Assembly: GCA_034432445.1 (NCBI GenBank)
Contig: DAOUBX010000204.1
Location: 2,143-66,142, forward strand
DNA length: 64,000 nt
DNA from: Anaerolineales bacterium
GTDB taxonomy: Bacteria; Chloroflexota; Anaerolineae; JAAEKA01
Reading direction: 5' to 3'
The translations under genes and the position numbers were made by a program. Of the stretch, positions 4,115-48,580 are shown in pieces (position 1 is the first letter of the stretch; every line of letters starts with the position of its first letter). The notes under the pieces were generated by a model, which did no database searches, was not told the DNA's origin, and was given only the letters and a program-made list of their open reading frames with translations.

Positions 4115-5809
4115 ATGACCCCTGCGTCGCATCGCGTCAACCCACTCACCTATCTGCTCTACGCCCTGCCGCTGGCCTTTATGGCCATCTTCTACTTTTA
4201 CCCTTTGCTGAGCATCCTGGGCTTGGGGCTGGCGCCAGAAGGGAAGGTGGACCTGAGCGGTTTTGCGGCGTTGGTGGAGCGACCCTACCTCGGTCGCGTC
4301 CTGTGGTTCACCGCGTGGCAAGCGCTGCTTTCCACGGCGCTCACGCTTCTGCTGGGCTTGCCCGCGGCATACGTGTTTGCCCACTACGAGTTTCCCGGCA
4401 AGAACTTGCTGCGCGCGCTGACGACCATCCCTTTCGTCATGCCTACAGTGGTCGTGGCTGCGGCCTTTGCCACGCTGCTGGGGCCACGCGGCCTGCTCAA
4501 CCAGTGGCTCATGGCTGCGTTCGGCCTGGCCCGTCCCCCCATCGACCTCCTGTACACGATCTGGATTATCCTCCTGGCGCACGTGTTCTACAACACCACG
4601 GTGATCGTGCGCATCGTTGGCGACTTCTGGGCCAACCTAGATCCACACCTCGGCGAGGCGGCTGCCATCCTGGGTGCCCATCGTGGCCGCGTGCTGCGCG
4701 AGATAACCTTGCCGCTGTTGCTCCCCTCGATCATCGCCGCGGGTCTGCTGGTGTTCCTCTTCTGCTTCACCAGCTTTGGCGTGATCCTGATCCTAGGGGG
4801 GCCGCGCTACGCCACGCTGGAGGTAGAGATCTACTACCAGGCAGTGAACCTCTTCAACCTGCCGCTGGCGGCGGCGCTGTCGTTGGTGCAACTGGCGATA
4901 ACCTTCAGCGTCATGGTGGTCTACACACGTCTGCAGGCGCGCGCCTCGCTGCCGCTCAACTTGCGGCCGCGCGCCAGCATTGCACGACGACCGGCCAACT
5001 GGCGGGAATGGCTGGCCGTGGGCGCGGTCATCACCCTGCTCTCGGCCGTCCTGCTGACGCCGCTCTTCGCCCTGGCCTGGCGCTCCGTGACCCTGGGGGC
5101 AGGTCCGCCCTCGCTGCGCTACTACCAGGCACTTACCGTCAACCGCAGTCAGGACATCTTCTTCGTGCCGCCGGTACAGGCCATCCGCAACTCGCTGGCG
5201 TTTTCTGTGCTGGCCACGGCGCTGGCCCTGGTCCTGGGGCTGATCAGCAGCTACATGCTCATCGCGCCGGGCCGCGTGGCCGGCCGGCTGGCGCGCTGGT
5301 TGGACCCGATCCTGCTGCTGCCGCTGGGCACCTCAGCGGTCACCCTTGGCCTGGGCTATATCGTCGCCCTCGACGCGCCACCGCTGAACTTGCGCACCTC
5401 GCTGGCCCTCATCCCGCTGGCCTATACGCTGATTGCTATGCCCTTCGTGGTGCGCTCGCTGCTGCCGGCCCTGCGCAGCCTCGATCCCGGCTTGCGCGAG
5501 GCAGCTGCAGTGCTAGGCGCTGCACCGACGCGCGTCATCCGCGAGGTCGATCTGCCGATTGTTGGCCGCGCGGTGCTGGTGGCCGGCGTGTTTGCCTTCA
5601 CGATCAGCCTGGGCGAGTTCGGCGCCACGCTGCTGCTCTATCAGCCGCGCTTTCCGACCATGTCGGTGGTGATCTATCGCGCCTTGAGCCAGCCCGGACT
5701 GCTCAACTACGGCCAGGCTCTGGCCATGAGCACGCTGCTGATGCTGGTGTGCATTGGTGGCCTATTGGTCATTGAGCGCTTTCGCGTCGGCGGTGTGGGA
5801 GAGTTCTAA
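4115..5809 (+). CDS. ABC transporter permease, two fused BPD_transp_1 domains (ThiP-like thiamine permease)
   Basis: The ORF track gives 4061..5809. ATG at 4115 (MTPASHRVNPLTYLLYALPLAF...) is the likely start. About 12 TM segments with two EAA-like loops. Confidence 0.8.
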   Translation: MTPASHRVNPLTYLLYALPLAFMAIFYFYPLLSILGLGLAPEGKVDLSGFAALVERPYLGRVLWFTAWQALLSTALTLLLGLPAAYVFAHYEFPGKNLLRALTTIPFVMPTVVVAAAFATLLGPRGLLNQWLMAAFGLARPPIDLLYTIWIILLAHVFYNTTVIVRIVGDFWANLDPHLGEAAAILGAHRGRVLREITLPLLLPSIIAAGLLVFLFCFTSFGVILILGGPRYATLEVEIYYQAVNLFNLPLAAALSLVQLAITFSVMVVYTRLQARASLPLNLRPRASIARRPANWREWLAVGAVITLLSAVLLTPLFALAWRSVTLGAGPPSLRYYQALTVNRSQDIFFVPPVQAIRNSLAFSVLATALALVLGLISSYMLIAPGRVAGRLARWLDPILLLPLGTSAVTLGLGYIVALDAPPLNLRTSLALIPLAYTLIAMPFVVRSLLPALRSLDPGLREAAAVLGAAPTRVIREVDLPIVGRAVLVAGVFAFTISLGEFGATLLLYQPRFPTMSVVIYRALSQPGLLNYGQALAMSTLLMLVCIGGLLVIERFRVGGVGEF

Positions 5810-7754: not shown

Positions 7755-7844
7755 ACGGTGAAGCTCCGTCCCCATCGCAAGAGATGGCGCGCTCTCTGTT
7801 TCCATCAATTTTTGCATGCCATGCAGAAAACGGCAGGGTTCTGC

Positions 7845-9157: not shown

Positions 9158-9787
9158 TTAGCGAGGGCGGACGCCAATACCTACCACCAACAGATCGACG
9201 ACTTCTTCCAGGCGCTCGCCCAGGTCGAAAGCGAAGTCCTCCTGGCACCAAAGTGCCAACTGTTGATAATACAAGCCCTCCAGCACCTGGGCTACCAAAT
9301 CGGGGTCGAGCGCGGCGTGGAACTCGCCTGTTCGCTGCCCACGGCTGATCAGAATGGCGACCAAGCCGCGGAAGCCAAAGCGGCCGCTGTGGGTGGGCGT
9401 GAGATGGCTGATGCGCATTGCCTTGTCCACGGCCAAACGCACCAAGTCCTTATCTTCGGCCAGGCTATCGGCCAGGGTGCGCATAAACGTCTTGAGCGCA
9501 GTGAGGGCGCTATCCGACTGTGAGATGCGCTTGCCGGTACCATTGGCCATCGCCGCACTCAAGCGCGCGATATGGCGTTCGCCGATGTAGAGCAGCACAT
9601 CTTCTTTGGTGGGGAAATAGTTGAAGAAGGTGCCCTTGGCTACACCGGCAGCTTGGGTGATCTCTTCAACGCGCGTCTCCTCAAATCCCTGGCGCCGAAA
9701 CAGCTCCATGGCGACAGAGTAAATGTTCTCCTTGCGCTCGCGCTTGTTGTTTTCGCGTTTGTTCCAGACTTTGCGTGCCGCTGACAT
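9158..9787 (-). CDS. TetR/AcrR-family transcriptional regulator
   Basis: Start taken at MSAARKVWNKRENNKRERKENIYSVAMELFRRQGFEETRVEEITQAAGVAKGTFFNYFPTKEDVL (HTH signature). The ORF track's longer N-extension (to 9889) is probably not translated. Confidence 0.8.
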   Translation of the reverse strand: MSAARKVWNKRENNKRERKENIYSVAMELFRRQGFEETRVEEITQAAGVAKGTFFNYFPTKEDVLLYIGERHIARLSAAMANGTGKRISQSDSALTALKTFMRTLADSLAEDKDLVRLAVDKAMRISHLTPTHSGRFGFRGLVAILISRGQRTGEFHAALDPDLVAQVLEGLYYQQLALWCQEDFAFDLGERLEEVVDLLVVGIGVRPR

Positions 9788-10247
9788 AGTCGTCCTGGCT
9801 CCCTTGTCGATCGGTGAACAACGATGCTGCGTGGATCGCGGGTGTCCACGTTCTTGACGATGTCGCTGACGCTGAGCGCTGCGCCGCATCCATCAAGTCT
9901 ACATCTATGTTGACGCATCCATGCAGCAAAAGTCGCGCGCTTTTTGGCTTACAGCAAAAATACATAGCCAAAAATTCACTACCACCTATGCAGGTGGTGG
10001 GCACGTACGACCCGTCTACGGTGGGCAGCAGCTTTGCAGGCGCTGCTGTCAACGCCGATTACCCACCACGAGCCAAAGCACCTACTCCTGAACGTTGTCT
10101 TTCAAGCCAGATGGTGGGCTCGGTATGCAGTTCTTGTCAGATGGAGAAGCCACCGGGGTGCAATGAGGGAAGGTCGAGAAGTGGCTTACGCCAAGTATAG
10201 CACAGCCAGCGCCGACAGGCAAGAGAAAGGGCAAACTTGCCGGCGCC

Positions 10248-10640
10248 TTAGCGGGCACGCGCCGCGCTGCGCGCCACCAGCAAGATGCCGGCACAGATGA
10301 CCAGGATACCCAGCCAGCGCAGCAGCGGCACCGTCTCGCCCAGAATCAGCCACGACGACAAAGCGATCAGAACGAAGTTCAGCGCCAAAAAAGGATAGGC
10401 TACGCTCAAGTCCAAGCGCGTCAACGCCGCAATCCAGGTCAGCGCGGCGAGCACGTAGCAAGCCAGCCCCAGGAGTACCAGCGGCTCGGTCACGATCATG
10501 CCGATGAAACCAGCCAGGCCACCGTCGCCTGCCGGCGCAACGGCGTGATTCACTCCCAGTTTGAGCAGCGTCTGGCCGACAACACCGGCCGTAATCGACA
10601 AACCGACGAGGGTGAATGCCTTCCAGTGTGATCGTTGCAT
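10248..10640 (-). CDS. EamA/DMT-superfamily small membrane transporter (4 TM, SMR/ArnE-like)
   Basis: 130 aa with four hydrophobic helices and an EamA-like pattern. Last gene of the MoxR operon. Confidence 0.6.
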   Translation of the reverse strand: MQRSHWKAFTLVGLSITAGVVGQTLLKLGVNHAVAPAGDGGLAGFIGMIVTEPLVLLGLACYVLAALTWIAALTRLDLSVAYPFLALNFVLIALSSWLILGETVPLLRWLGILVICAGILLVARSAARAR

Positions 10641-10643
10641 AGT

Positions 10644-11627
10644 TCAGTCTGCTGTGCTAGGTGCATCGACCATCGGTTGTGCGCCGGCCGACACGGCTCG
10701 ATAGGCCAACGTCCATGCGCTGGCATCGAATACCAGATAGATGCCTTGCAGAACCAGCGAGGGTATAGCCACGATGAGCAACAGCAGTGGCAGGCCGAAC
10801 AACAGGGCCCAACCCACCGAGTCGGTCAACCAGTAGACTGCGTAGCCCAAGCCGCCCCCGATGGCCAACCCCACGGCGCCGGCTGCCAGCAGCACGGGGA
10901 TGAGCGCCAGCGCAAACACGACGCCGATCGCCGCCATCAACAGCCAGAAGACTGCCACATCGCCGGCCTTCCGCCGCGCTAGCCGCACACCCATCGCCAG
11001 CGCCTCACCCACGCTGCGGTCGGCAAGGACAATTGCGCGACGCCAAAACTGCAGCAAGACACTGACGATGACGCCGGCGAGAATCAGCAGCAAGACCACG
11101 AAGATCTCTAGCCCAACCGTTGCTGCAACGCCCATGGCCCGCAGCGCTTCGCTGTCGAAGAGGAGCAGCAGCAAAGGCGCTGCGCCCAGGGCCAACAGCA
11201 GCAGCGCTGCCAGGCTGCCGACGATCCCCACCACCAGATCGAGCAAAAACATGCGCGCTGCGCGGCGATCCCAGCCCAGGCGCAAGCCGGCGCGCCACGT
11301 GGGCGCGACGCCGCTTTCGGCAGTGGCGTCTGTGGCGCGGTAGAGGCCGGTGCGGGCCACGTATTGCACGACGGTCAACACCACGACCAGCACGAGGCCC
11401 ACGCCACAGATCAGCAGCAGAACACTGGTGATGACCACGGGTGCGACCCTGGGTAGCCGGTCAAGGGCAGGGAACGCCATGCTGACGTCGTTGCTGTTGA
11501 AGGTGTAGGTGAAGGTATTGCCGCCGCCGCTGGCGCTACTGAGAGCCAGCAGAATACCTAGAATCCACAGAACTTTGTGGCGCCACGTGATCGCAGCGGC
11601 CTTCTTGATGATGCTAACGTAATCCAT
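10644..11627 (-). CDS. Polytopic membrane protein of unknown function (MoxR-operon member)
   Basis: 327 aa, about 8 TM helices, no recognisable catalytic motif. Overlaps the upstream gene by 14 nt. Confidence 0.5.
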   Translation of the reverse strand: MDYVSIIKKAAAITWRHKVLWILGILLALSSASGGGNTFTYTFNSNDVSMAFPALDRLPRVAPVVITSVLLLICGVGLVLVVVLTVVQYVARTGLYRATDATAESGVAPTWRAGLRLGWDRRAARMFLLDLVVGIVGSLAALLLLALGAAPLLLLLFDSEALRAMGVAATVGLEIFVVLLLILAGVIVSVLLQFWRRAIVLADRSVGEALAMGVRLARRKAGDVAVFWLLMAAIGVVFALALIPVLLAAGAVGLAIGGGLGYAVYWLTDSVGWALLFGLPLLLLIVAIPSLVLQGIYLVFDASAWTLAYRAVSAGAQPMVDAPSTAD

Positions 11628-13278
11628 CGGAACCTCCTGTCGCCGCGTTGCGCCTGCTACTCAGCGCCCGCTTGATGCGTTCCCAAATCGATTTGACCAG
11701 CCGGGCCTCGTCAGAGCTGATCTCGGCCACATCGTAACGGGCCACCACAAAGGCCTCGGTCAAGGCTTCCACGTCCAGCTCAGTTTCAGGCCACGTGCTT
11801 TCCAGGTCTCGCACGAATTCCAACGGCGTCTGCGCCGGCCGCCGCGCCACACCTTGATCTGCAGCCCGGCGGAGCGTGCTCAGGTAGAAGTAGCGCACCT
11901 GCTCGCGCGGGGGCAGCGCACCCAGCCGAATGAAGCGCCACGGCTGCGCCGGCGCTGCCTTACGGGCTGCCTGGCTACGCCGGCCCGGCAGACTCACTTG
12001 CGCAGCTTGAGCCAGCCGGCCCAGCCCCTGCCACCGCGATCGGAAATAGGCCAGGAGCCTAGTCAGGGCGCTCTGCAGCTTGCCTCTTGTCACAGCAAGC
12101 CCACTCTCGCCCAGCAGGAAGCGCAGAGACAACAACAGCGCAACGACTACCACCAGCCACAGGCTGGCCCCGCCCAGCCAGGGCGGCAGGGCCAGCCAGG
12201 GCAGAGAGGGCGCCATAGCGGCCGGTCCTATCTCCTGTGGCATCTCTGGCATGGGCGCATCCTGGCCTGCCAGGCGTAAGAGCAAAGCAAAGAGCGTGGT
12301 CACCAAGAAAATGACCCACAGCACAACCTGCACAACAGCCATCAGAACGGCGTTGAGAACGGCGCCGATTTGCCAGGTGGAGCCCAACGGGAGCAGAGCT
12401 GCCAGCAGGCCGATGCCGACGATGATCAAGAGACTGAAGCGGCTCCAACGGCCAGGCAAATGCTCAGGCATCTCCACGCCGTCTTGCAGCCACTGTGCGC
12501 GCAGCACGGCGAGCCGCGCCTGGCTGATCAACACCAGGCCGATCCAAAAATAGACCACGCTTGCGACAACAATCTGAGGAGGAATGCCCATGATGAGCAC
12601 GTTCAGGCTCCATCCCGGGCCGAACCGCACCCGCGTAACGGCTGCACAGAAGGCGAGGAAGATGCCGCCCAGGAGCCACTGGCTGGTGTATTGATCCACC
12701 AGCTCAGAGCGCGACACGTAGGCACGTTCTGGCATGCGACCAAGTCGCCACAAATTGCCGGCCCGTCGCTCAGCGTCATAGGCCAGCTCGCCAGGCGTCA
12801 GCGCCAGCCAATAGAAGATCGTTGCCACTACGCCGGCTCGGTGCCACGCCAGCGCGCAACACAAGCTGACAGCGACAAAAAATCCATCGAAAAACGTCCA
12901 CGGTTCTAGAATCCAGCCGCGCATGGCGCCTAGGGTGGGCCACTGGCCGGACCAGGCCCAAGTAAGTAACCGCAACAGAGCCAGCATCACCAGGAATTCG
13001 GCCAGCAGGAAAGCGGTCTTTCCGGTGAGGCGTTGTGTGGGCTGGGCCAGCCACTGCGCGCTGTAAGTTCCCACCAGGGCGGCAACGAAAATCGGCAACG
13101 GCGCCCAGCGCAGCGCCGGATTAGCGCTAATGACCAGCGCGACGAGCCAGGGCCCCATGGCCAGGCACGTCGCTTGCAGGGCAATCAGCCATGGGCGAGC
13201 AACCTGGCTTTGCCAAGCCGAGTCCTGCAGGCTATCCGCACGGCCGAGGGGCGATAACTCATCGGTTTGACTCGTCAT
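11614..13278 (-). CDS. Membrane protein with C-terminal DUF4129 domain (transglutaminase-operon type)
   Basis: Start set at MTSQTDELSPLG (ATG at 13278 overlapping the DUF58 stop as ATGA). The track's longer ORF would overlap DUF58 by 200 nt. Multi-TM N-terminus with a cytoplasmic C-terminal domain (...TPLEFVRDLESTWPETELDVEALTEAFVVARYD...) characteristic of DUF4129. Confidence 0.6.
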   Translation of the reverse strand: MTSQTDELSPLGRADSLQDSAWQSQVARPWLIALQATCLAMGPWLVALVISANPALRWAPLPIFVAALVGTYSAQWLAQPTQRLTGKTAFLLAEFLVMLALLRLLTWAWSGQWPTLGAMRGWILEPWTFFDGFFVAVSLCCALAWHRAGVVATIFYWLALTPGELAYDAERRAGNLWRLGRMPERAYVSRSELVDQYTSQWLLGGIFLAFCAAVTRVRFGPGWSLNVLIMGIPPQIVVASVVYFWIGLVLISQARLAVLRAQWLQDGVEMPEHLPGRWSRFSLLIIVGIGLLAALLPLGSTWQIGAVLNAVLMAVVQVVLWVIFLVTTLFALLLRLAGQDAPMPEMPQEIGPAAMAPSLPWLALPPWLGGASLWLVVVVALLLSLRFLLGESGLAVTRGKLQSALTRLLAYFRSRWQGLGRLAQAAQVSLPGRRSQAARKAAPAQPWRFIRLGALPPREQVRYFYLSTLRRAADQGVARRPAQTPLEFVRDLESTWPETELDVEALTEAFVVARYDVAEISSDEARLVKSIWERIKRALSSRRNAATGGSDGLR

Positions 13279-23746: not shown

Positions 23747-25639
<1,893 letters not shown>

Positions 25640-44050: not shown

Positions 44051-44238
44051 GGCGAGAGTATACCACAGCCGCAACCATGCAGCCAAGCACCCGCCGCGTC
44101 CGCACAAAAAGCCGCCGTGGTTTGACCATAAGCGCGGCGTAGACTATACTCTGCTTTAGCCCATTACCCGTGCCTGGCGACTAACCACCAATCTACCAAT
44201 CTACCAGTTCCCCTTTTTTTTAAGTCTGCTTCCCGCCC

Positions 44239-45960
44239 ATGCTACGCACAGTTCCAGAGACGATCAACGAAGAAGTCGACCTCTACATTCGCACCTACTA
44301 CTCACTGTTGCGCAGCACGCAAGCCATCCGGGTGCGTTCGCTGGAGGAAACGCACGCCGGCATGCGCGCCAGCTTGCACCCCAACGCCGACGACCCAGAG
44401 CCCGACATCTCGGCGTTCACCTATGCTGCGGCGCGACTGCCGTCCTGCATGCCGCAGGTCAAGCTCGTGCTACTGGGGCAGTCGGACGAGGTGTTCCTGC
44501 GCCGCGGCCGCGTGGACATCAGCCGCTGGCAGCGGGTCTATGCTGCGGCGCGGCGGCGCAAGATGTTCTTCGACGGCCAGGATCGGCTGGCCTGTTACAT
44601 CTCCAGCGTCAGCGACATCGACGACCTGATCCCCATCTTGACAGCCTATCAGATCGAGTGGAACAAGCTGCACTATCGCTTCAGCACATCAGATGCTGCT
44701 GCACGGCTGCGGAGGTTGGCTGGGCCGGTCGAGCTGGCAGCGCAAGACCTGGAGGCGATCCGCGCCGCACTCGGCTTGGAAGTGGAGCCATTCCAGCGGT
44801 TGTGCCAGGCCTGGCGCAAAGACTTGAGCGATAGCTTCCGCCACCTGGCCGAGCACCCCAGCGATCTGAGCCTGAACCTGTTGGCGGGCTCGGTGGCCGA
44901 CTATCGCCAGGCGGTACAGGCCTGGTGGAGCAGCGTGGCCGAGCAGGCCAACCTGGGGCCGCTCTATGATCGCTCGATCTACTTCGTCTCCAGCAATCCC
45001 CACGCCATCCCAAACCTGCTCAGCGGCTTTGCGCGGCTGCACCGTGATGCCCTGCTCACTTTTCTGTATCAGCACAATCCGGAGGGTTTGTGGGATGAGT
45101 GGCAGCGGCTGGCAGATGAAGGCAACGCGGCGGCGCAAGAAAACCTGCTGTACTACGTCCAGCGCAACTTTCTGCAGGCCGACCCTGCGCGCCAGCAGGA
45201 GTGGCTGGCCCACGAGGCGGCCCTAGGAATCCACCGCATCGACAACCCCCACTACCTGGACGTGGGCGCGCAAGTCATCGAGCTGGGGCGGCTGGACCCA
45301 GCCCTTTTCGACCCGCGTCTGCGCATGCCGGGCTTGGAAAAGCTGCGCCGCAGCCAAGACTTGTTGGTCAACGTCGATTACCCGCTGGGCATGGCGGCTT
45401 ACCACCTCTTCTCGCAGATCTCCGCCGCCGTGCCCGACCTGCTGGGGGTGTACATCATGGGCAAGGCCGCCACGCTCAACGGCCGCGTGGGCGACGTGAT
45501 GATCCCCAACGTGATCTACGACGAGCATTCCAAGAACACCTTTTTGTTCAAGAACTGCTTCGAGGCGGCAGACGTGGCGCCGTATCTGCAATACAGCACG
45601 GTCTTTGACAACCAGAAAGGCGTCACTGTGCGCGGCACCTTCCTGCAGAACCGCCAGTTCATGGCCGTCTTCTACAAAGAGGGCTACACCGACATCGAGA
45701 TGGAGGCCGGGCCGTACCTGAGCGGTATCTACGAGGACATTTACCCGCAGCGCTACCCGATTAACGAGATCGTCAACCTGTTCATCAACGCGCCCTACGA
45801 CATCGGCGTGCTGCACTACGCCTCGGACACGCCCTACAGCCGGCGGCAGAGCCTGCTCAGCAAGAGCTTGAGCTACTTCGGCGTCGACGCCACCTACGCT
45901 GCCAGCATCGCGATCATGCGGCGGATTTTGCAGGTGGAACTGGCGCGATTGGGTGGATGA
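44239..45960 (+). CDS. AMP nucleosidase-like protein (N-terminal regulatory-like domain + C-terminal PNP_UDP_1 phosphorylase-fold domain)
   Basis: The C-terminal region LLVNVDYPLGMAAYHLFSQISAAVPDLLGVYIMGKAATLNGRVGDVMIPNVIYDEH and later DIEMEAGPYL / VLHYASD align motif-for-motif with E. coli Amn (LVNIGVGPSNAKT...PDVWLMIGHCGGL...GDYVLAHAYLRDDH; IDMESATIA; LCVSD). 573 aa versus 484 aa for Amn. Confidence 0.5.
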   Translation: MLRTVPETINEEVDLYIRTYYSLLRSTQAIRVRSLEETHAGMRASLHPNADDPEPDISAFTYAAARLPSCMPQVKLVLLGQSDEVFLRRGRVDISRWQRVYAAARRRKMFFDGQDRLACYISSVSDIDDLIPILTAYQIEWNKLHYRFSTSDAAARLRRLAGPVELAAQDLEAIRAALGLEVEPFQRLCQAWRKDLSDSFRHLAEHPSDLSLNLLAGSVADYRQAVQAWWSSVAEQANLGPLYDRSIYFVSSNPHAIPNLLSGFARLHRDALLTFLYQHNPEGLWDEWQRLADEGNAAAQENLLYYVQRNFLQADPARQQEWLAHEAALGIHRIDNPHYLDVGAQVIELGRLDPALFDPRLRMPGLEKLRRSQDLLVNVDYPLGMAAYHLFSQISAAVPDLLGVYIMGKAATLNGRVGDVMIPNVIYDEHSKNTFLFKNCFEAADVAPYLQYSTVFDNQKGVTVRGTFLQNRQFMAVFYKEGYTDIEMEAGPYLSGIYEDIYPQRYPINEIVNLFINAPYDIGVLHYASDTPYSRRQSLLSKSLSYFGVDATYAASIAIMRRILQVELARLGG

Positions 45961-48580
45961 AATGCTGCTCCTGCTTGTTAGCGTCTCTGTGCTCTTTATC
46001 GGTTCTGGCCTGCTCGCTCACTGGCTGCACCGCCGCGGCCGGCCGGACTGGCGCCAGGATGTGCTGGCGGCCGGGCTGTTGGCGCTGGCCTGCCTCGGCT
46101 ACTTCTGGCGCATTCTCCTCGGCGACGCCTGGATGCCGGCCGACGGCGGCGACCTGATCTCCTTCCTCTGGCCAACGTATCGCTTTGCGGCGGAGAGTCT
46201 GCGCAACGGCCAGCTACCTCTCTGGAACACGCACCTCTACGGCGGCGCGCCACACGTCGCCGACATCCAGGCCGGCTTCCTCTACCCGGTCAACCTGCTG
46301 CTGTTCTTCCTCCTGCCCGATTTCAGCACCAAGGCCATGCAGACGCTCAGCATCCTGCACTTCTGGTGGGCCGGGCTAGGCATGTACGTCTTCTTGCGCA
46401 GCCTGCGCTGGGGGGCGGAGCGGCAGGAGCAGGTGAGCCGGCCGGCCAGCCTGCTGGCTGGGATCGCCTTCGCCTTCTCTGACCCGTTCTGGGTGCACTT
46501 CGGCAACCTGAACTTCATCGCCGTGGCCAGCTGGCTGCCATGGGTGATGGCGTGCTACATGCGGGCGTTGGAAGAGGGAAAGGAAGGAAAAGAGGGAAAG
46601 GAGGGAAAGAAGGGGGAGGATAGACAAGTAGATAAGGGAGCGGGTAGACAAGTGGACAAGGAGGCAAGTAGACAAGGCGAGGGTGCAGAGAACGACGAAG
46701 AGCGTTCACCGATCACCGTTCACCGATCACCGATCACCGTTCACCGTTCCCTGGCCTGGGCTGCGCTGGCTGGGCTGTTGCTCGGTATCGGCACCCTCGC
46801 CGGACACATCCAGGCCACGTTGTTCATCGGCATGGCCGCTGCGATCTACGGCGCGTTCTGGGTGTTGGGTGGAGCGAGCGCGCCCTACTCCCGAGCAGGG
46901 GGAGGTCGAGAGAGAGTCGTGCGCTATCTCGCCAGGCTGGCCGTCCTGGCCGCTGTCGCTTTCTTGATCGCCGCGCCGGTGCTCTTGCCCGCGCTGCAGT
47001 TGACGCAGTACACCACGCGCGCCAACTGGAGCTATCAGGAGACCGTCGGCTATTCCCTGTCGCCGGCGCAGTGGATCGGCTTTGTCGTCCCCGGCTTCTT
47101 CGGCCGCGGGCCGCAGCTACACTGGGGCCTTTGGCCGCGCGTGGAAGTGGGCTATCTGGGCATTCTGCCGCTCGCGCTGGCCGCGCTGGCGCTCCTGGCG
47201 CGGCGAGAGCGCCACATGTGGGCGCTGACCGGGTTGAGCGGAGTGGCTTTTCTCCTCTCCTTGGGCATCTACAGCATCGTGCACGGCTGGTTGACACTGC
47301 TGCCCGGCTTTGATCTGTTGCGCGCGCCGGCGCGCTTTGCCCTGCTGGTGGACTTCGGCCTGGCTGCGCTGGCCGGCGTGGGCTTGCACGTGCTGCTCAG
47401 CTCGCTCAGCGACGGCGCCGCCTGGAAAGCTGTTACCCGACTGGCCGATGGCCTAGGCTGGCTGGCCAAGGCCGTTGTGGCTATTGTCGTACCGTTGACC
47501 TTTGCTGCGCTGCTCTTGGCCCAAGACAAGGACCCCACGGTCTACCTGCGGGTGGCCGTGGCCGCCATTGCCGTCATGCTGTTCGTAGGCTTTCTGCTGG
47601 CGAGCTGGGCGTTGGTTGCGGCGCGCCGCAACGGCTGGGCGCAGCCGGGCACGCTGGCTGTGCTGGCCATTAGCCTGGTCTTTCTGGACCTCGCCAGCAC
47701 CGGCGCCTACAACGACCTGGGCGGCCAAGACCCCGCGCGCACCTTCGACCAGCCGGCGATCGCAGCCTTCTTGGCGCAAGAGAACGAGCCCTTCCGCATC
47801 GATGCCCGCACCGACATCGATCAGCTCTGGCAGCCCAACACGGGGCTGCTTTACGGCTTTGATGACGTGTGGGGCGTGGTCAACCCCTCGATCCTCGCCG
47901 CCTACGAGCGCTATTGGGAGGGCATGGGCAGCCGCTCCAGCCGGCTCTACGACTTCCTCAACGCCAAGTACGTCATCGCGCGCAAGGATGTCGTGCTGGA
48001 CTGGGAGAAGTTCGAGCTGGCCTTCGACGGCGACCCTGACCTGAACGTCTATCGCAACCGCGCCGCCTTGCCGCGCGGCCAGATCATCCACGAGGTACTG
48101 GCGGTGGACACGCCCGAGGCGGCGTGGGACGCCGTGCACGCCACAGGCTTCGATCCTGGCCGCCAGGTTGTGGTGGAAGACACCGGCCAGGGCGCGCTAT
48201 GGATGCCGCCGACGGGCGCGCCCAGCCCTGGCGCCGACGAACACGTCACCTGGCTTAAGCGCACGCCCACGCAACTGGTGTTGGAGGTGACGGCGGCCGC
48301 GCCAGGCTATCTCGTGCTGAGCGAGGCCTGGTATCCCGGTTGGCAGGTCCAGATCGGCGCCGATGGCCGGTGGAGCGACCTACCTGACGCCGTCGTTCGC
48401 GCCAACACGGCCTTCCAAGCTGTGCCCTTGACCCGCGCCGGCGCGTATCAGGTGCGTCTGCGCTTTGCCCCTCTGCCCTGGCGCGTGGGTTTGTCTCTTA
48501 GCGTTGTCAGCGTGCTCGGCCTTGTCATTGTGGCCGGCGCGCTGCGGCGGCGGCGCCCTCTACACCGTCTGGACGTATGA
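45953..48580 (+). CDS. YfhO-family membrane protein (putative glycosyltransferase of cell-envelope glycopolymers) with in-frame low-complexity insertion
   Basis: 875 aa. The N-terminus and multi-TM architecture match YfhO. It overlaps the upstream gene by 8 nt. Residues about 205-265 (EEGKEGKEGKEGKKGEDRQVDKGAGRQVDKEASRQGEGAENDEERSPITVHRSPITVHRS) are encoded by tandem DNA repeats. Confidence 0.75.
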   Translation: MDEMLLLLVSVSVLFIGSGLLAHWLHRRGRPDWRQDVLAAGLLALACLGYFWRILLGDAWMPADGGDLISFLWPTYRFAAESLRNGQLPLWNTHLYGGAPHVADIQAGFLYPVNLLLFFLLPDFSTKAMQTLSILHFWWAGLGMYVFLRSLRWGAERQEQVSRPASLLAGIAFAFSDPFWVHFGNLNFIAVASWLPWVMACYMRALEEGKEGKEGKEGKKGEDRQVDKGAGRQVDKEASRQGEGAENDEERSPITVHRSPITVHRSLAWAALAGLLLGIGTLAGHIQATLFIGMAAAIYGAFWVLGGASAPYSRAGGGRERVVRYLARLAVLAAVAFLIAAPVLLPALQLTQYTTRANWSYQETVGYSLSPAQWIGFVVPGFFGRGPQLHWGLWPRVEVGYLGILPLALAALALLARRERHMWALTGLSGVAFLLSLGIYSIVHGWLTLLPGFDLLRAPARFALLVDFGLAALAGVGLHVLLSSLSDGAAWKAVTRLADGLGWLAKAVVAIVVPLTFAALLLAQDKDPTVYLRVAVAAIAVMLFVGFLLASWALVAARRNGWAQPGTLAVLAISLVFLDLASTGAYNDLGGQDPARTFDQPAIAAFLAQENEPFRIDARTDIDQLWQPNTGLLYGFDDVWGVVNPSILAAYERYWEGMGSRSSRLYDFLNAKYVIARKDVVLDWEKFELAFDGDPDLNVYRNRAALPRGQIIHEVLAVDTPEAAWDAVHATGFDPGRQVVVEDTGQGALWMPPTGAPSPGADEHVTWLKRTPTQLVLEVTAAAPGYLVLSEAWYPGWQVQIGADGRWSDLPDAVVRANTAFQAVPLTRAGAYQVRLRFAPLPWRVGLSLSVVSVLGLVIVAGALRRRRPLHRLDV
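46570..46750. repeat. Composite tandem-repeat block inside yfhO: (GGGAAAG)n, (TAGACAAG)x4, (GTTCACC/GATCACC)x7
   Basis: GAAGAGGGAAAGGAAGGAAAAGAGGGAAAGGAGGGAAAGAAGGGGGAGG, then GATAGACAAGTAGATAAGGGAGCGGGTAGACAAGTGGACAAGGAGGCAAGTAGACAAGG, then GTTCACCGATCACCGTTCACCGATCACCGATCACCGTTCACCGTTCC. The purine richness is very atypical for this genome. Confidence 0.7.

Follow-up and report, generated by a model that had tools for sequence, protein, structure and literature searches.

In a 64,000-nucleotide (nt) stretch of Chloroflexota DNA from an Anaerolineales bacterium (contig DAOUBX010000204.1), hereafter called the window, a gene for a YfhO-family polytopic membrane protein carries 180 bases of tandemly repeated DNA that are translated in frame. 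This repeat mosaic lies in a loop of the protein, is homologous to inserts of different copy number in orthologous genes and is built from units that recur in unrelated genes and in the intergenic spacers of related genomes. It probably belongs, in our view, to a family of short-tandem-repeat mosaics that is specific to the lineage and dispersed, with units of 7-9 nt, including GWTCACC, TAGACAAG, GAGGGAAAG and others. Because such units are scattered across the genes and spacers of the lineage, the segment would represent tolerated repeat DNA and not a designed protein segment.

The host gene belongs to the membrane glycosyltransferase family, and its open reading frame (ORF) is uninterrupted by the mosaic (Table 1). 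The three adjoining arrays have higher-order periodicities of 9, 24 and 21 nt, each of which is in frame; the sole perfect periodicity that Tandem Repeats Finder detects in the heptamer array (Array 3) is one of 21 nt (2.0 copies at 100%). All three arrays are far beyond chance: within the window the GWTCACC-type heptamer pattern has six matches against 0.02 expected from shuffles, and the purine-rich pattern seven against 0.36. The original prediction, made by a model from the letters of the window, had described a composite tandem repeat of about 180 bp in this gene, and the three arrays bear it out, save that the first unit is better described as the 9-mer GAGGGAAAG than as GGGAAAG. The mosaic also departs from its surroundings in composition, with a GC content of 0.54-0.58 between flanks of 0.63-0.72 and a purine skew in which both GC skew and AT skew reach a maximum of +0.70. 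Read in the YfhO frame it yields EEGKEGKEGKEGKKGEDRQVDKGAGRQVDKEASRQGEGAENDEERSPITVHRSPITVHRS, exactly as had been claimed, and this is the single open frame of the six; the reverse strand carries TGA in all its frames because of the GGTGAAC/GGTGATC units.

Folding revealed no hairpin, of RNA or DNA, in the YfhO mosaic, which with a predicted fold of -39.6 kcal/mol compared to -46.3 for shuffles (z +1.9) folds worse than shuffled sequence, and a search of positions 46300-47000 against Rfam returned only eukaryotic, sub-threshold matches. A repeat search found no terminal inverted repeats around this copy. As a candidate target-site duplication we considered the direct repeat that flanks the mosaic (46533-46546 / 46759-46772; 14 nt, 79%) and rejected it as conserved coding sequence; it encodes WLPWV and AALAG and is present also in insert-free orthologues. 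The non-repetitive spacer of the mosaic and the conserved coding sequence (CDS) downstream form a 28-nt inverted match (46676-46703 versus 46774-46801) that brackets the heptamer array, the CDS side encoding LLLGIGTLAG. Its 22 of 28 complementary positions were reached by none of 300 dinucleotide shuffles (maximum 19). The match was not seen in five relatives and hence is no conserved structure; it may reflect a lineage-specific template-switch event.

A search returned more than 1000 YfhO homologues, the best of them, with 60-68% identity, coming from Caldilineales/Anaerolineae metagenome-assembled genomes (MAGs). We aligned the window protein with 31 homologues from Caldilineales/Anaerolineae MAGs and metagenome contigs (32 sequences in total), the 24 closest at 61-82% identity and seven outgroups at 52-56%. 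The insert is flanked by the conserved sequences SWLPWVxACY and LAWAALxGxLLGIxTLAGH. At this site the outgroup proteins have about ten residues, so the alignment upholds the view that the segment is an insertion relative to outgroup orthologues; among the close relatives its length ranges from almost nothing to about 60 residues, and no column within the insert is conserved across the 32 sequences. An AlphaFold model computed on the homologue alignment (predicted template modelling score, pTM, 0.81) contains helices at residues 195-207 and 260-281, connected by coil at residues 208-259, where the predicted local distance difference test (pLDDT) gives block values of 40-52 and stays below 50 for residues 224-259. 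On this model the mosaic occupies a flexible loop between two confident helices, in keeping with the membrane-protein loop that had been envisaged for it.

At the DNA level we read seven orthologous yfhO loci, which we label L125/L132, L002, L003, L001, L126, L174 and L175. The closest relative, L125/L132 (82% amino acid identity in YfhO), carries an insert of GGAGGAGAGGGGAAAGG-GTAGACAAGTAGRCAAGGAAACAAG-AAGGGGGGAGGCAGAGAGCGAAGAGCC...-TTCACCGTTTACCGTTTACCGCTTACTGATCACC followed by the conserved CTGGCCTGGGC. It has about 1.5 copies of the Array 1 unit compared to 4.6 in the window, and the window exceeds it in copy number for all three arrays, each of which has been enlarged in the lineage of the window. 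The inserts of L001, L002 and L003 follow the module order of the window with other copy numbers and with the heptamer variants GTTTACC, GATTACC and GCTTACC. A TAGACAAG octamer array stands at the equivalent position in orthologues, and the insert site of L126 holds a G/A-rich block and heptamers without the TAGACAAG array. Since the inserts of these Caldilineales/Anaerolineae orthologues are collinear and differently sized, the segment is old within the clade. The idea of a recent insertion is therefore wrong: related genomes carry a homologous, collinear and remodelled segment at the equivalent site. Of the pattern that an ancestral linker had been expected to leave, namely the same segment in relatives with conserved amino acids, the first part is found and the second is not.

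Six of the seven orthologous loci examined as DNA have in-frame inserts. In L126 (Caldilineales MAG GCA_041391245.1) yfhO is called as two overlapping genes (9222-10040 / 10001-11767) because of a frameshift in the heptamer segment (~9920-9960), which is either a real pseudogene, a phase variant or an error of the MAG assembly. In one Joint Genome Institute (JGI) sample the assembly is broken across the YfhO repeat, and the contig ends differ there by one single-nucleotide polymorphism (SNP); the only contig from the same species as the window reaches just 120 nt into yfhO. Some 150 nt upstream of the main insert the orthologues display another variable site (L002 3440-3600; L001 and L003; alignment columns 160-220), where units of 36-39 nt, GGGATGCTTCGGCGGCCCTCAGCATGACA, encode the peptide RDASAALSMT in up to three copies; the window is without it.

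A comparison of the nucleotide and peptide sequences shows that conservation lies in the DNA units and not in the amino acids. Between octamers and heptamers the yfhO gene of L001 contains a 54-nt stretch, termed module B, that is identical at 48 of 54 positions to part of a related element in a B12-type radical S-adenosylmethionine (SAM) gene of the window (Table 1). The yfhO loop of L174 contains 41 nt of module B, of which 35 match the same element. Module B is read as PILRTxEPxSPFT in L001 (with PILRTDEPG as the reading there) and in the radical SAM gene; in L174 it is read in another frame, as RLSSEPASQ. The equivalent loop of L175 holds heptamers in reverse orientation (GGCGAAC GGCGAAC GACGAAT GGTGAAT), in variants free of TGA, which are read as MANGERRMVNG. 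The reading of module B in two frames, together with the reversed heptamers, is not the behaviour of a functional linker.

The radical SAM element of the window shares with the YfhO mosaic a G/A-rich block and 2.7 GTTCACC units (24799-24817), in the same orientation relative to the gene. The claim that the same building blocks recur at this site thus stands for these two components and not for the elements as wholes, which have just 16-19 nt in common by BLAST. The G-rich left and C-rich right ends of the radical SAM element pair over 15 nt (24779-24793 / 24948-24962, 87% complementary); its folding z is -1.3, with pairing confined to these ends, and the 3' arm, which codes for the clade-conserved LSPFA, may lie outside the element proper. 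The enzyme is about 80% identical across the clade, and the loop between VADTKL and LSPFAxSTLERV is hypervariable, with 0-110 residues. The peptides of this loop derive from heptamers of both orientations: its left part has VNGER/MNDER, its right part SPFTVH/SPITDH/LTINH. In a strain of the same species (98.75% nt identity over 20 kb) the element differs by two SNPs and no indel.

In-frame repeat loops and linkers were seen in YfhO, in the radical SAM enzyme, in adenylation (A) domains of non-ribosomal peptide synthetase (NRPS), in acyl carrier protein (ACP) linkers and in a second radical SAM enzyme. The NRPS, from a Caldilineales MAG, has (AGTGATC)n(GWTCACC)n(GCTCCCC)n in each of two adenylation-domain loops of one 2666-residue stop-to-stop frame, and in a tandem-ACP synthase (L135) all inter-ACP linkers consist of 8-mer arrays. 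The latter is encoded by a polyketide/polyunsaturated-fatty-acid-synthase-like ORF (L135 1-1269) in which a 345-nt unit is repeated 3.6 times, with four ACP-like segments in translation; its linkers hold a different 8-mer array apiece, of CCCAATCA, GACACGGT, CCAGTCAC, GACAAGGT and GTAGACAA.

The units are also found outside genes. Inverted heptamer or octamer arrays form intergenic hairpins at L024, L029, L030, L044, L125 and L135, and in relatives such inverted arrays fill spacers from the stop codon to the ribosome-binding site. Two L024 spacers between co-directional genes (5436-5508 and 7756-7823) consist almost wholly of (GGTNANC)4-loop-(GNTNACC)3-4, and at the second of these a GGTGAAC unit apparently supplies the TGA that terminates the upstream ORF. 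Inverted pairs of the type (GTAGACAA)n...(TTGTCTAC)n occur in L024, L125 and L135. Roughly 0.3 Mb of Caldilineales-type DNA contained TAGACAAG arrays at no fewer than 12 loci, frequently as inverted pairs within spacers; some 1.3 Mb of sequence from other phyla and viral contigs contained none. A spacer of L131 contains a 9-mer array, (GTTTCCCTC)3, the reverse complement of GAGGGAAAC, which is nearly identical to the Array 1 unit. The intergenic ACCAATCT array of the window is identical in the same-species contig L130, and arrays of its unit exceed 100 nt in L135 (5163-5294). Several GWTCACC arrays per contig are present in the Caldilineales MAGs SKYG74 and DTUCFX11 and in Anaerolineae JBAQCH01. 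Both heptamer arrays of the window lie inside ORFs and those of relatives are often intergenic, in proportions that are biased because the loci of the relatives were fetched by the repeat itself. The original prediction had likened the segment to Rickettsia palindromic elements, as a selfish repeat that colonises ORFs. Since the units recur in other genes and spacers, repeat DNA that settles in ORFs without disrupting them is a fair description; the likeness ends at the palindrome, which the segment does not form.

Further repeats were observed at other loci. The orthologous spacer between CCG-domain and peptidase M24 genes holds different arrays in three genomes, namely TAGACAAG x3 plus GTACCTGT x4 in L126 (1379-1472), TAGACAAG x4 in L174 (2010-2041) and GTTTCCCTC x3 in L131 (1091-1121). 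A tandem duplication at L071 1850-2100 involves a module of some 85 nt that contains a hairpin, GGAGTTCGCACGTGGGCGTGCGAACTCC, and has GTTCACC as its tail; the module recurs in diverged form at L048 2450-2620, both loci being from MAG SKYG74. Fifteen copies of a 36-nt unit, 94% identical and not separated by spacers, lie at L138 6972-7511.

A scan of metagenomes with the pattern GTAGACAAG...TCACCGNTYACCG returned nine stretches, three of them real and six chance matches without arrays. The full composite, in the module order of the window, is present at three unrelated loci, all from one JGI metagenome: an ACP linker (L135), a different B12-type radical SAM gene (L136) and a nuoM-nuoN spacer (L138). 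These three loci provide the best evidence that copies may move, or get copied, as units; as the composite is dispersed as a whole, we do not accept pure in-situ slippage as its origin.

The heptamer by itself is far more widespread. A genome scan for GWTCACC found at least 120 stretches where about 17 would be expected by our own estimate, and a tally of titles among the matches listed gives about 30 from Gemmatimonadota, 13 from Chloroflexota, 15 from Bacteroidota and many others. GWTCACC arrays occur in 32 viral contigs; composition-matched permuted heptamers occur in 9, 15 and 7. With these controls at 7-15 contigs, the excess of GWTCACC is merely about 2-4.5-fold, and we rejected the idea of GWTCACC as a unique pan-bacterial element. 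The unit is only moderately favoured and heptamer arrays are common as a class, so that their presence across phyla alone requires no horizontal spread. Inverted arrays of the type (GGTGAAC)n...(GTTCACC)n abound in Gemmatimonadota spacers (L029 7092-7225, L030 1023-1192 and other Gemmatimonadales loci).

Table 1. Repeat features of the window and the genes that contain or adjoin them
Feature	Position	Strand	Description or evidence
Host gene, YfhO-family polytopic membrane protein	45953-48580	+	875 aa, ORF intact; Pfam PF09586 YfhO, E 7e-10
In-frame repeat mosaic, residues 206-265 (EEGKEGK...SPITVHRS), 60 residues	46568-46747	+	180 bases, three adjoining tandem arrays
Array 1, 9-mer GAGGGAAAG x4.6, encodes EGK repeats	46574-46614	+	Tandem Repeats Finder, period 9, 84% matches
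Array 2, 24-nt units x2.8, each with octamer TAGACAAG, encodes RQVDK	46610-46681	+	Tandem Repeats Finder (46610-46676, period 24), repeat search
Non-repetitive spacer within the mosaic	46676-46703	+	22/28 complementary to conserved CDS 46774-46801
Array 3, heptamer GTTCACC/GATCACC (GWTCACC) x6.7, encodes SPITVHR x2	46703-46749	+	Tandem Repeats Finder, period 7, 90%
Related element in B12-type radical SAM gene (ORF 23747-25639)	24781-24965	-	Sequence, translation
Module B plus 2.7 GTTCACC units (ACCGCGCGCCTATCCTCAGAACCGAGGAGCCAGAGTCACCGTTCACCGTTCACC)	24799-24853	-	Match to L001 and L174 yfhO loops
Octamer array (ACCAATCT) x2.5 in a spacer, just upstream of DUF6909 gene	44187-44206	+	Tandem Repeats Finder

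A scenario for the origin of the YfhO segment can be drawn from these data. In the Caldilineales-type lineage the units would normally build inverted-array hairpins in intergenic spacers and would additionally occupy permissive loops and linkers of proteins. The composite [G/A-rich]-[TAGACAAG]n-[GGGGAA..]-[GWTCACC]n may have entered the YfhO loop in the ancestor of the clade. Its later remodelling would have taken three forms: units were gained and lost, presumably by replication slippage, neighbouring modules were exchanged or acquired, and the orientation was reversed in one lineage. Selection would act as a filter only, retaining a stop-free orientation and a total length that keeps the frame, and the product would be a disordered, hydrophilic and presumably neutral loop. 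The data would fit either of two ways of seeding new loci, transposition of a small element or exchange between arrays through ectopic recombination or gene conversion.

Several points weigh against this scenario. No dispersal mechanism was identified, the YfhO copy having neither terminal inverted repeats nor a target-site duplication, and that the translated loop is neutral is an assumption. The window itself has only two heptamer arrays, both intra-ORF, and one octamer array; with so few arrays in 64 kb, a high copy number in the source genome is an extrapolation from relatives. Moreover, 138 kb of loci chosen independently of the repeat gave just two heptamer arrays of at least three copies, both in YfhO. 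An exact-pattern scan of metagenomes for module B produced no match, and the 28-nt inverted match to the downstream CDS is left unexplained.

The segment could alternatively belong to a discrete non-autonomous transposable element, either a MITE (a miniature transposable element with inverted repeats) or one of the Rickettsia-palindromic-element type, that was mobilised by a transposase in trans and entered the YfhO and radical SAM ORFs as a unit. We regard this as unlikely, even though it would account for a composite with conserved module order at at least four unrelated loci, for the occurrence of module B in unrelated genes of different genomes and for the variable orientation among orthologues at a single site; the 15-nt terminal inverted arms of the radical SAM copy and the heptamer arrays in viral contigs can be counted in its favour as well. 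However, the YfhO copy is without defined ends, inverted termini or target duplication, which argues against a classical MITE; it folds worse than shuffles, and the insert is inherited and not recent. The ends of the copies are inconsistent, the two window copies align over only the short stretches found by BLAST, and the 3' arm of the radical SAM copy, being clade-conserved coding sequence, is perhaps no part of the element. No transposase was identified, though no transposase search was made.

More speculative, and in our estimate quite improbable, is the existence in filamentous Chloroflexota of an active sequence-specific system that would copy arrays and modules between spacers and ORFs, for instance a transposase recognising hairpins or a protein that binds nucleic acids and reads 7-9-nt units. 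Such a system might have counterparts in cyanobacteria, Beggiatoaceae, Gemmatimonadota and their phages, and the arrays might act at the RNA or DNA level as terminator, processing or translation-pausing hairpins. If this were true, the in-ORF copies would not be inert but would modulate how envelope and secondary-metabolite enzymes are expressed.

The original prediction had also offered a contingency (phase-variable) tract. Slippage by 7 nt would then shift the frame and switch a YfhO-family surface-glycosylation enzyme on and off within the population; we hold this to be very unlikely. The glycopolymers of the cell envelope, on which YfhO-family proteins act, are a typical target of phase variation, and a unit length that is no multiple of three, the frameshift inside the heptamers of the L126 orthologue and the broken JGI assembly with its SNP difference between contig ends would all suit such a switch. 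Nevertheless, the units alternate between T and A, so that perfect register is restored only at 21 nt, in frame, the best periodicities of the other arrays are likewise in frame, and the copies of the heptamer are imperfect and number merely 6.7. Only one orthologue is frameshifted, possibly through a MAG assembly error, and the other six of seven loci are in frame. Like arrays are found in housekeeping enzymes and spacers, and the radical SAM copy has no indel between strains.

Least probable of all is an ancestral functional low-complexity linker of YfhO, with the repetitive DNA as a by-product of encoding a charged flexible loop: the intact ORF and the homologous segments at one site in many orthologues, with the recurring motifs RQVDKE and HRSPITxHR, would agree with it, but the length of the segment varies from ~0 to 60 residues around no conserved column, the model renders it as low-confidence coil, the orientation is opposite in one orthologue, unrelated proteins and non-coding spacers contain identical units and the composite in full, and on these sequences the two-frame reading of one DNA module and the intergenic copies appear largely to refute it.

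If the segment does belong to a family of dispersed repeat mosaics, then in one Chloroflexota lineage dispersed 7-9-nt repeat DNA fills linkers and loops in enzymes that are well conserved (YfhO, B12-type radical SAM, NRPS adenylation domains and tandem-ACP), and this DNA is kept as DNA and read in whatever frame is open. The practical effects are that short-read assemblies are broken, gene calls split and protein divergence inflated, and that spurious low-complexity domains arise. The orthologous sites that are filled, empty or reversed offer a way into the mechanism of spread, and the heptamer-repeat phenomenon of cyanobacteria, Beggiatoaceae and Xanthomonas is extended to another phylum. 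The segment is useful mainly as a well-documented starting point for studying 7-9-nt repeat mosaics and as a caution to those who annotate and assemble genomes.

Among known repeat systems, the contingency loci of host-adapted bacteria resemble the YfhO segment in having a tandem unit that is no multiple of three in the 5' third of a cell-envelope gene; the units of the window, in contrast, are imperfect and alternating with an in-frame higher-order periodicity, and related arrays occur in housekeeping genes. Rickettsia palindromic elements are reportedly 100-200 bp long, inserted in frame in many unrelated protein genes and translated as surface loops; the function of the host protein is said to be kept, and the elements to be conserved as DNA rather than as peptide. 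The insertion in frame into loops of unrelated proteins is found here too, whereas a stable hairpin and copies alignable over their full length are not. Compared by description and not by sequence, the Rickettsia elements are single-copy-type palindromic units with overall similarity between copies; the window segment is a tandem-array mosaic, is not palindromic and has only modules common to its copies. MITEs differ in the terminal inverted repeats and target-site duplication that the YfhO copy lacks.

Heptamer repeats are over-represented in bacteria, with slippage as the proposed cause (PMC4679880, PMC4692102, both citing a 2007 survey); on GTTCACC or heptamer repeats in Chloroflexi/Chloroflexota our literature search found nothing relevant. 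Of the known systems, three families of heptamer repeats come closest. In Xanthomonas and Nostoc, the G-rich heptamers GGGAATC / GGGGAYT are short G-tract units that are dispersed, variable in copy number and sometimes arranged as inverted repeats (PMC4692102). The GAGGGAAAG array of the window and a GGGGAGT array at L085 are similar in flavour, although the window unit is a 9-mer within a CDS. TAACTGA heptamer direct repeats occur in marine Beggiatoaceae, cyanobacteria and some Bacteroidetes (PMC4679880), and as with GWTCACC one heptamer is arrayed across distant phyla with other heptamers mixed in (PMC4679880). They are mostly intergenic, often just upstream of start codons, and have a single translatable orientation, in which a few intra-ORF arrays give LSVISYQ (PMC4679880). 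A close relation of this unit appears in the NRPS inserts (L065), whose left arm, (TCAGTGA)n, is one base off the reverse complement of TAACTGA. The unit of the window is nevertheless a different one, many arrays here are inverted-pair hairpins between stop codon and ribosome-binding site, and the in-ORF copies recur at equivalent loops across orthologues.

The short tandemly repeated repetitive (STRR) heptanucleotides of heterocystous cyanobacteria (Calothrix/Nostoc) offer a further parallel: tandem 7-nt units, several of them per genome, in dispersed and intermixed arrays, which in the cyanobacteria are mostly intergenic. As in STRR sequences, at least three head-to-tail copies of a 5-11-nt unit are present here, arrays stand at unlinked loci of the lineage, and copy number varies between relatives. 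The repeats described here differ in their units (GWTCACC, TAGACAAG and GAGGGAAAG) and in their phylum, Chloroflexota of Caldilineales type, where 8- and 9-mers join the heptamers in a fixed module order and the arrays are read in frame within the loops of conserved enzymes.

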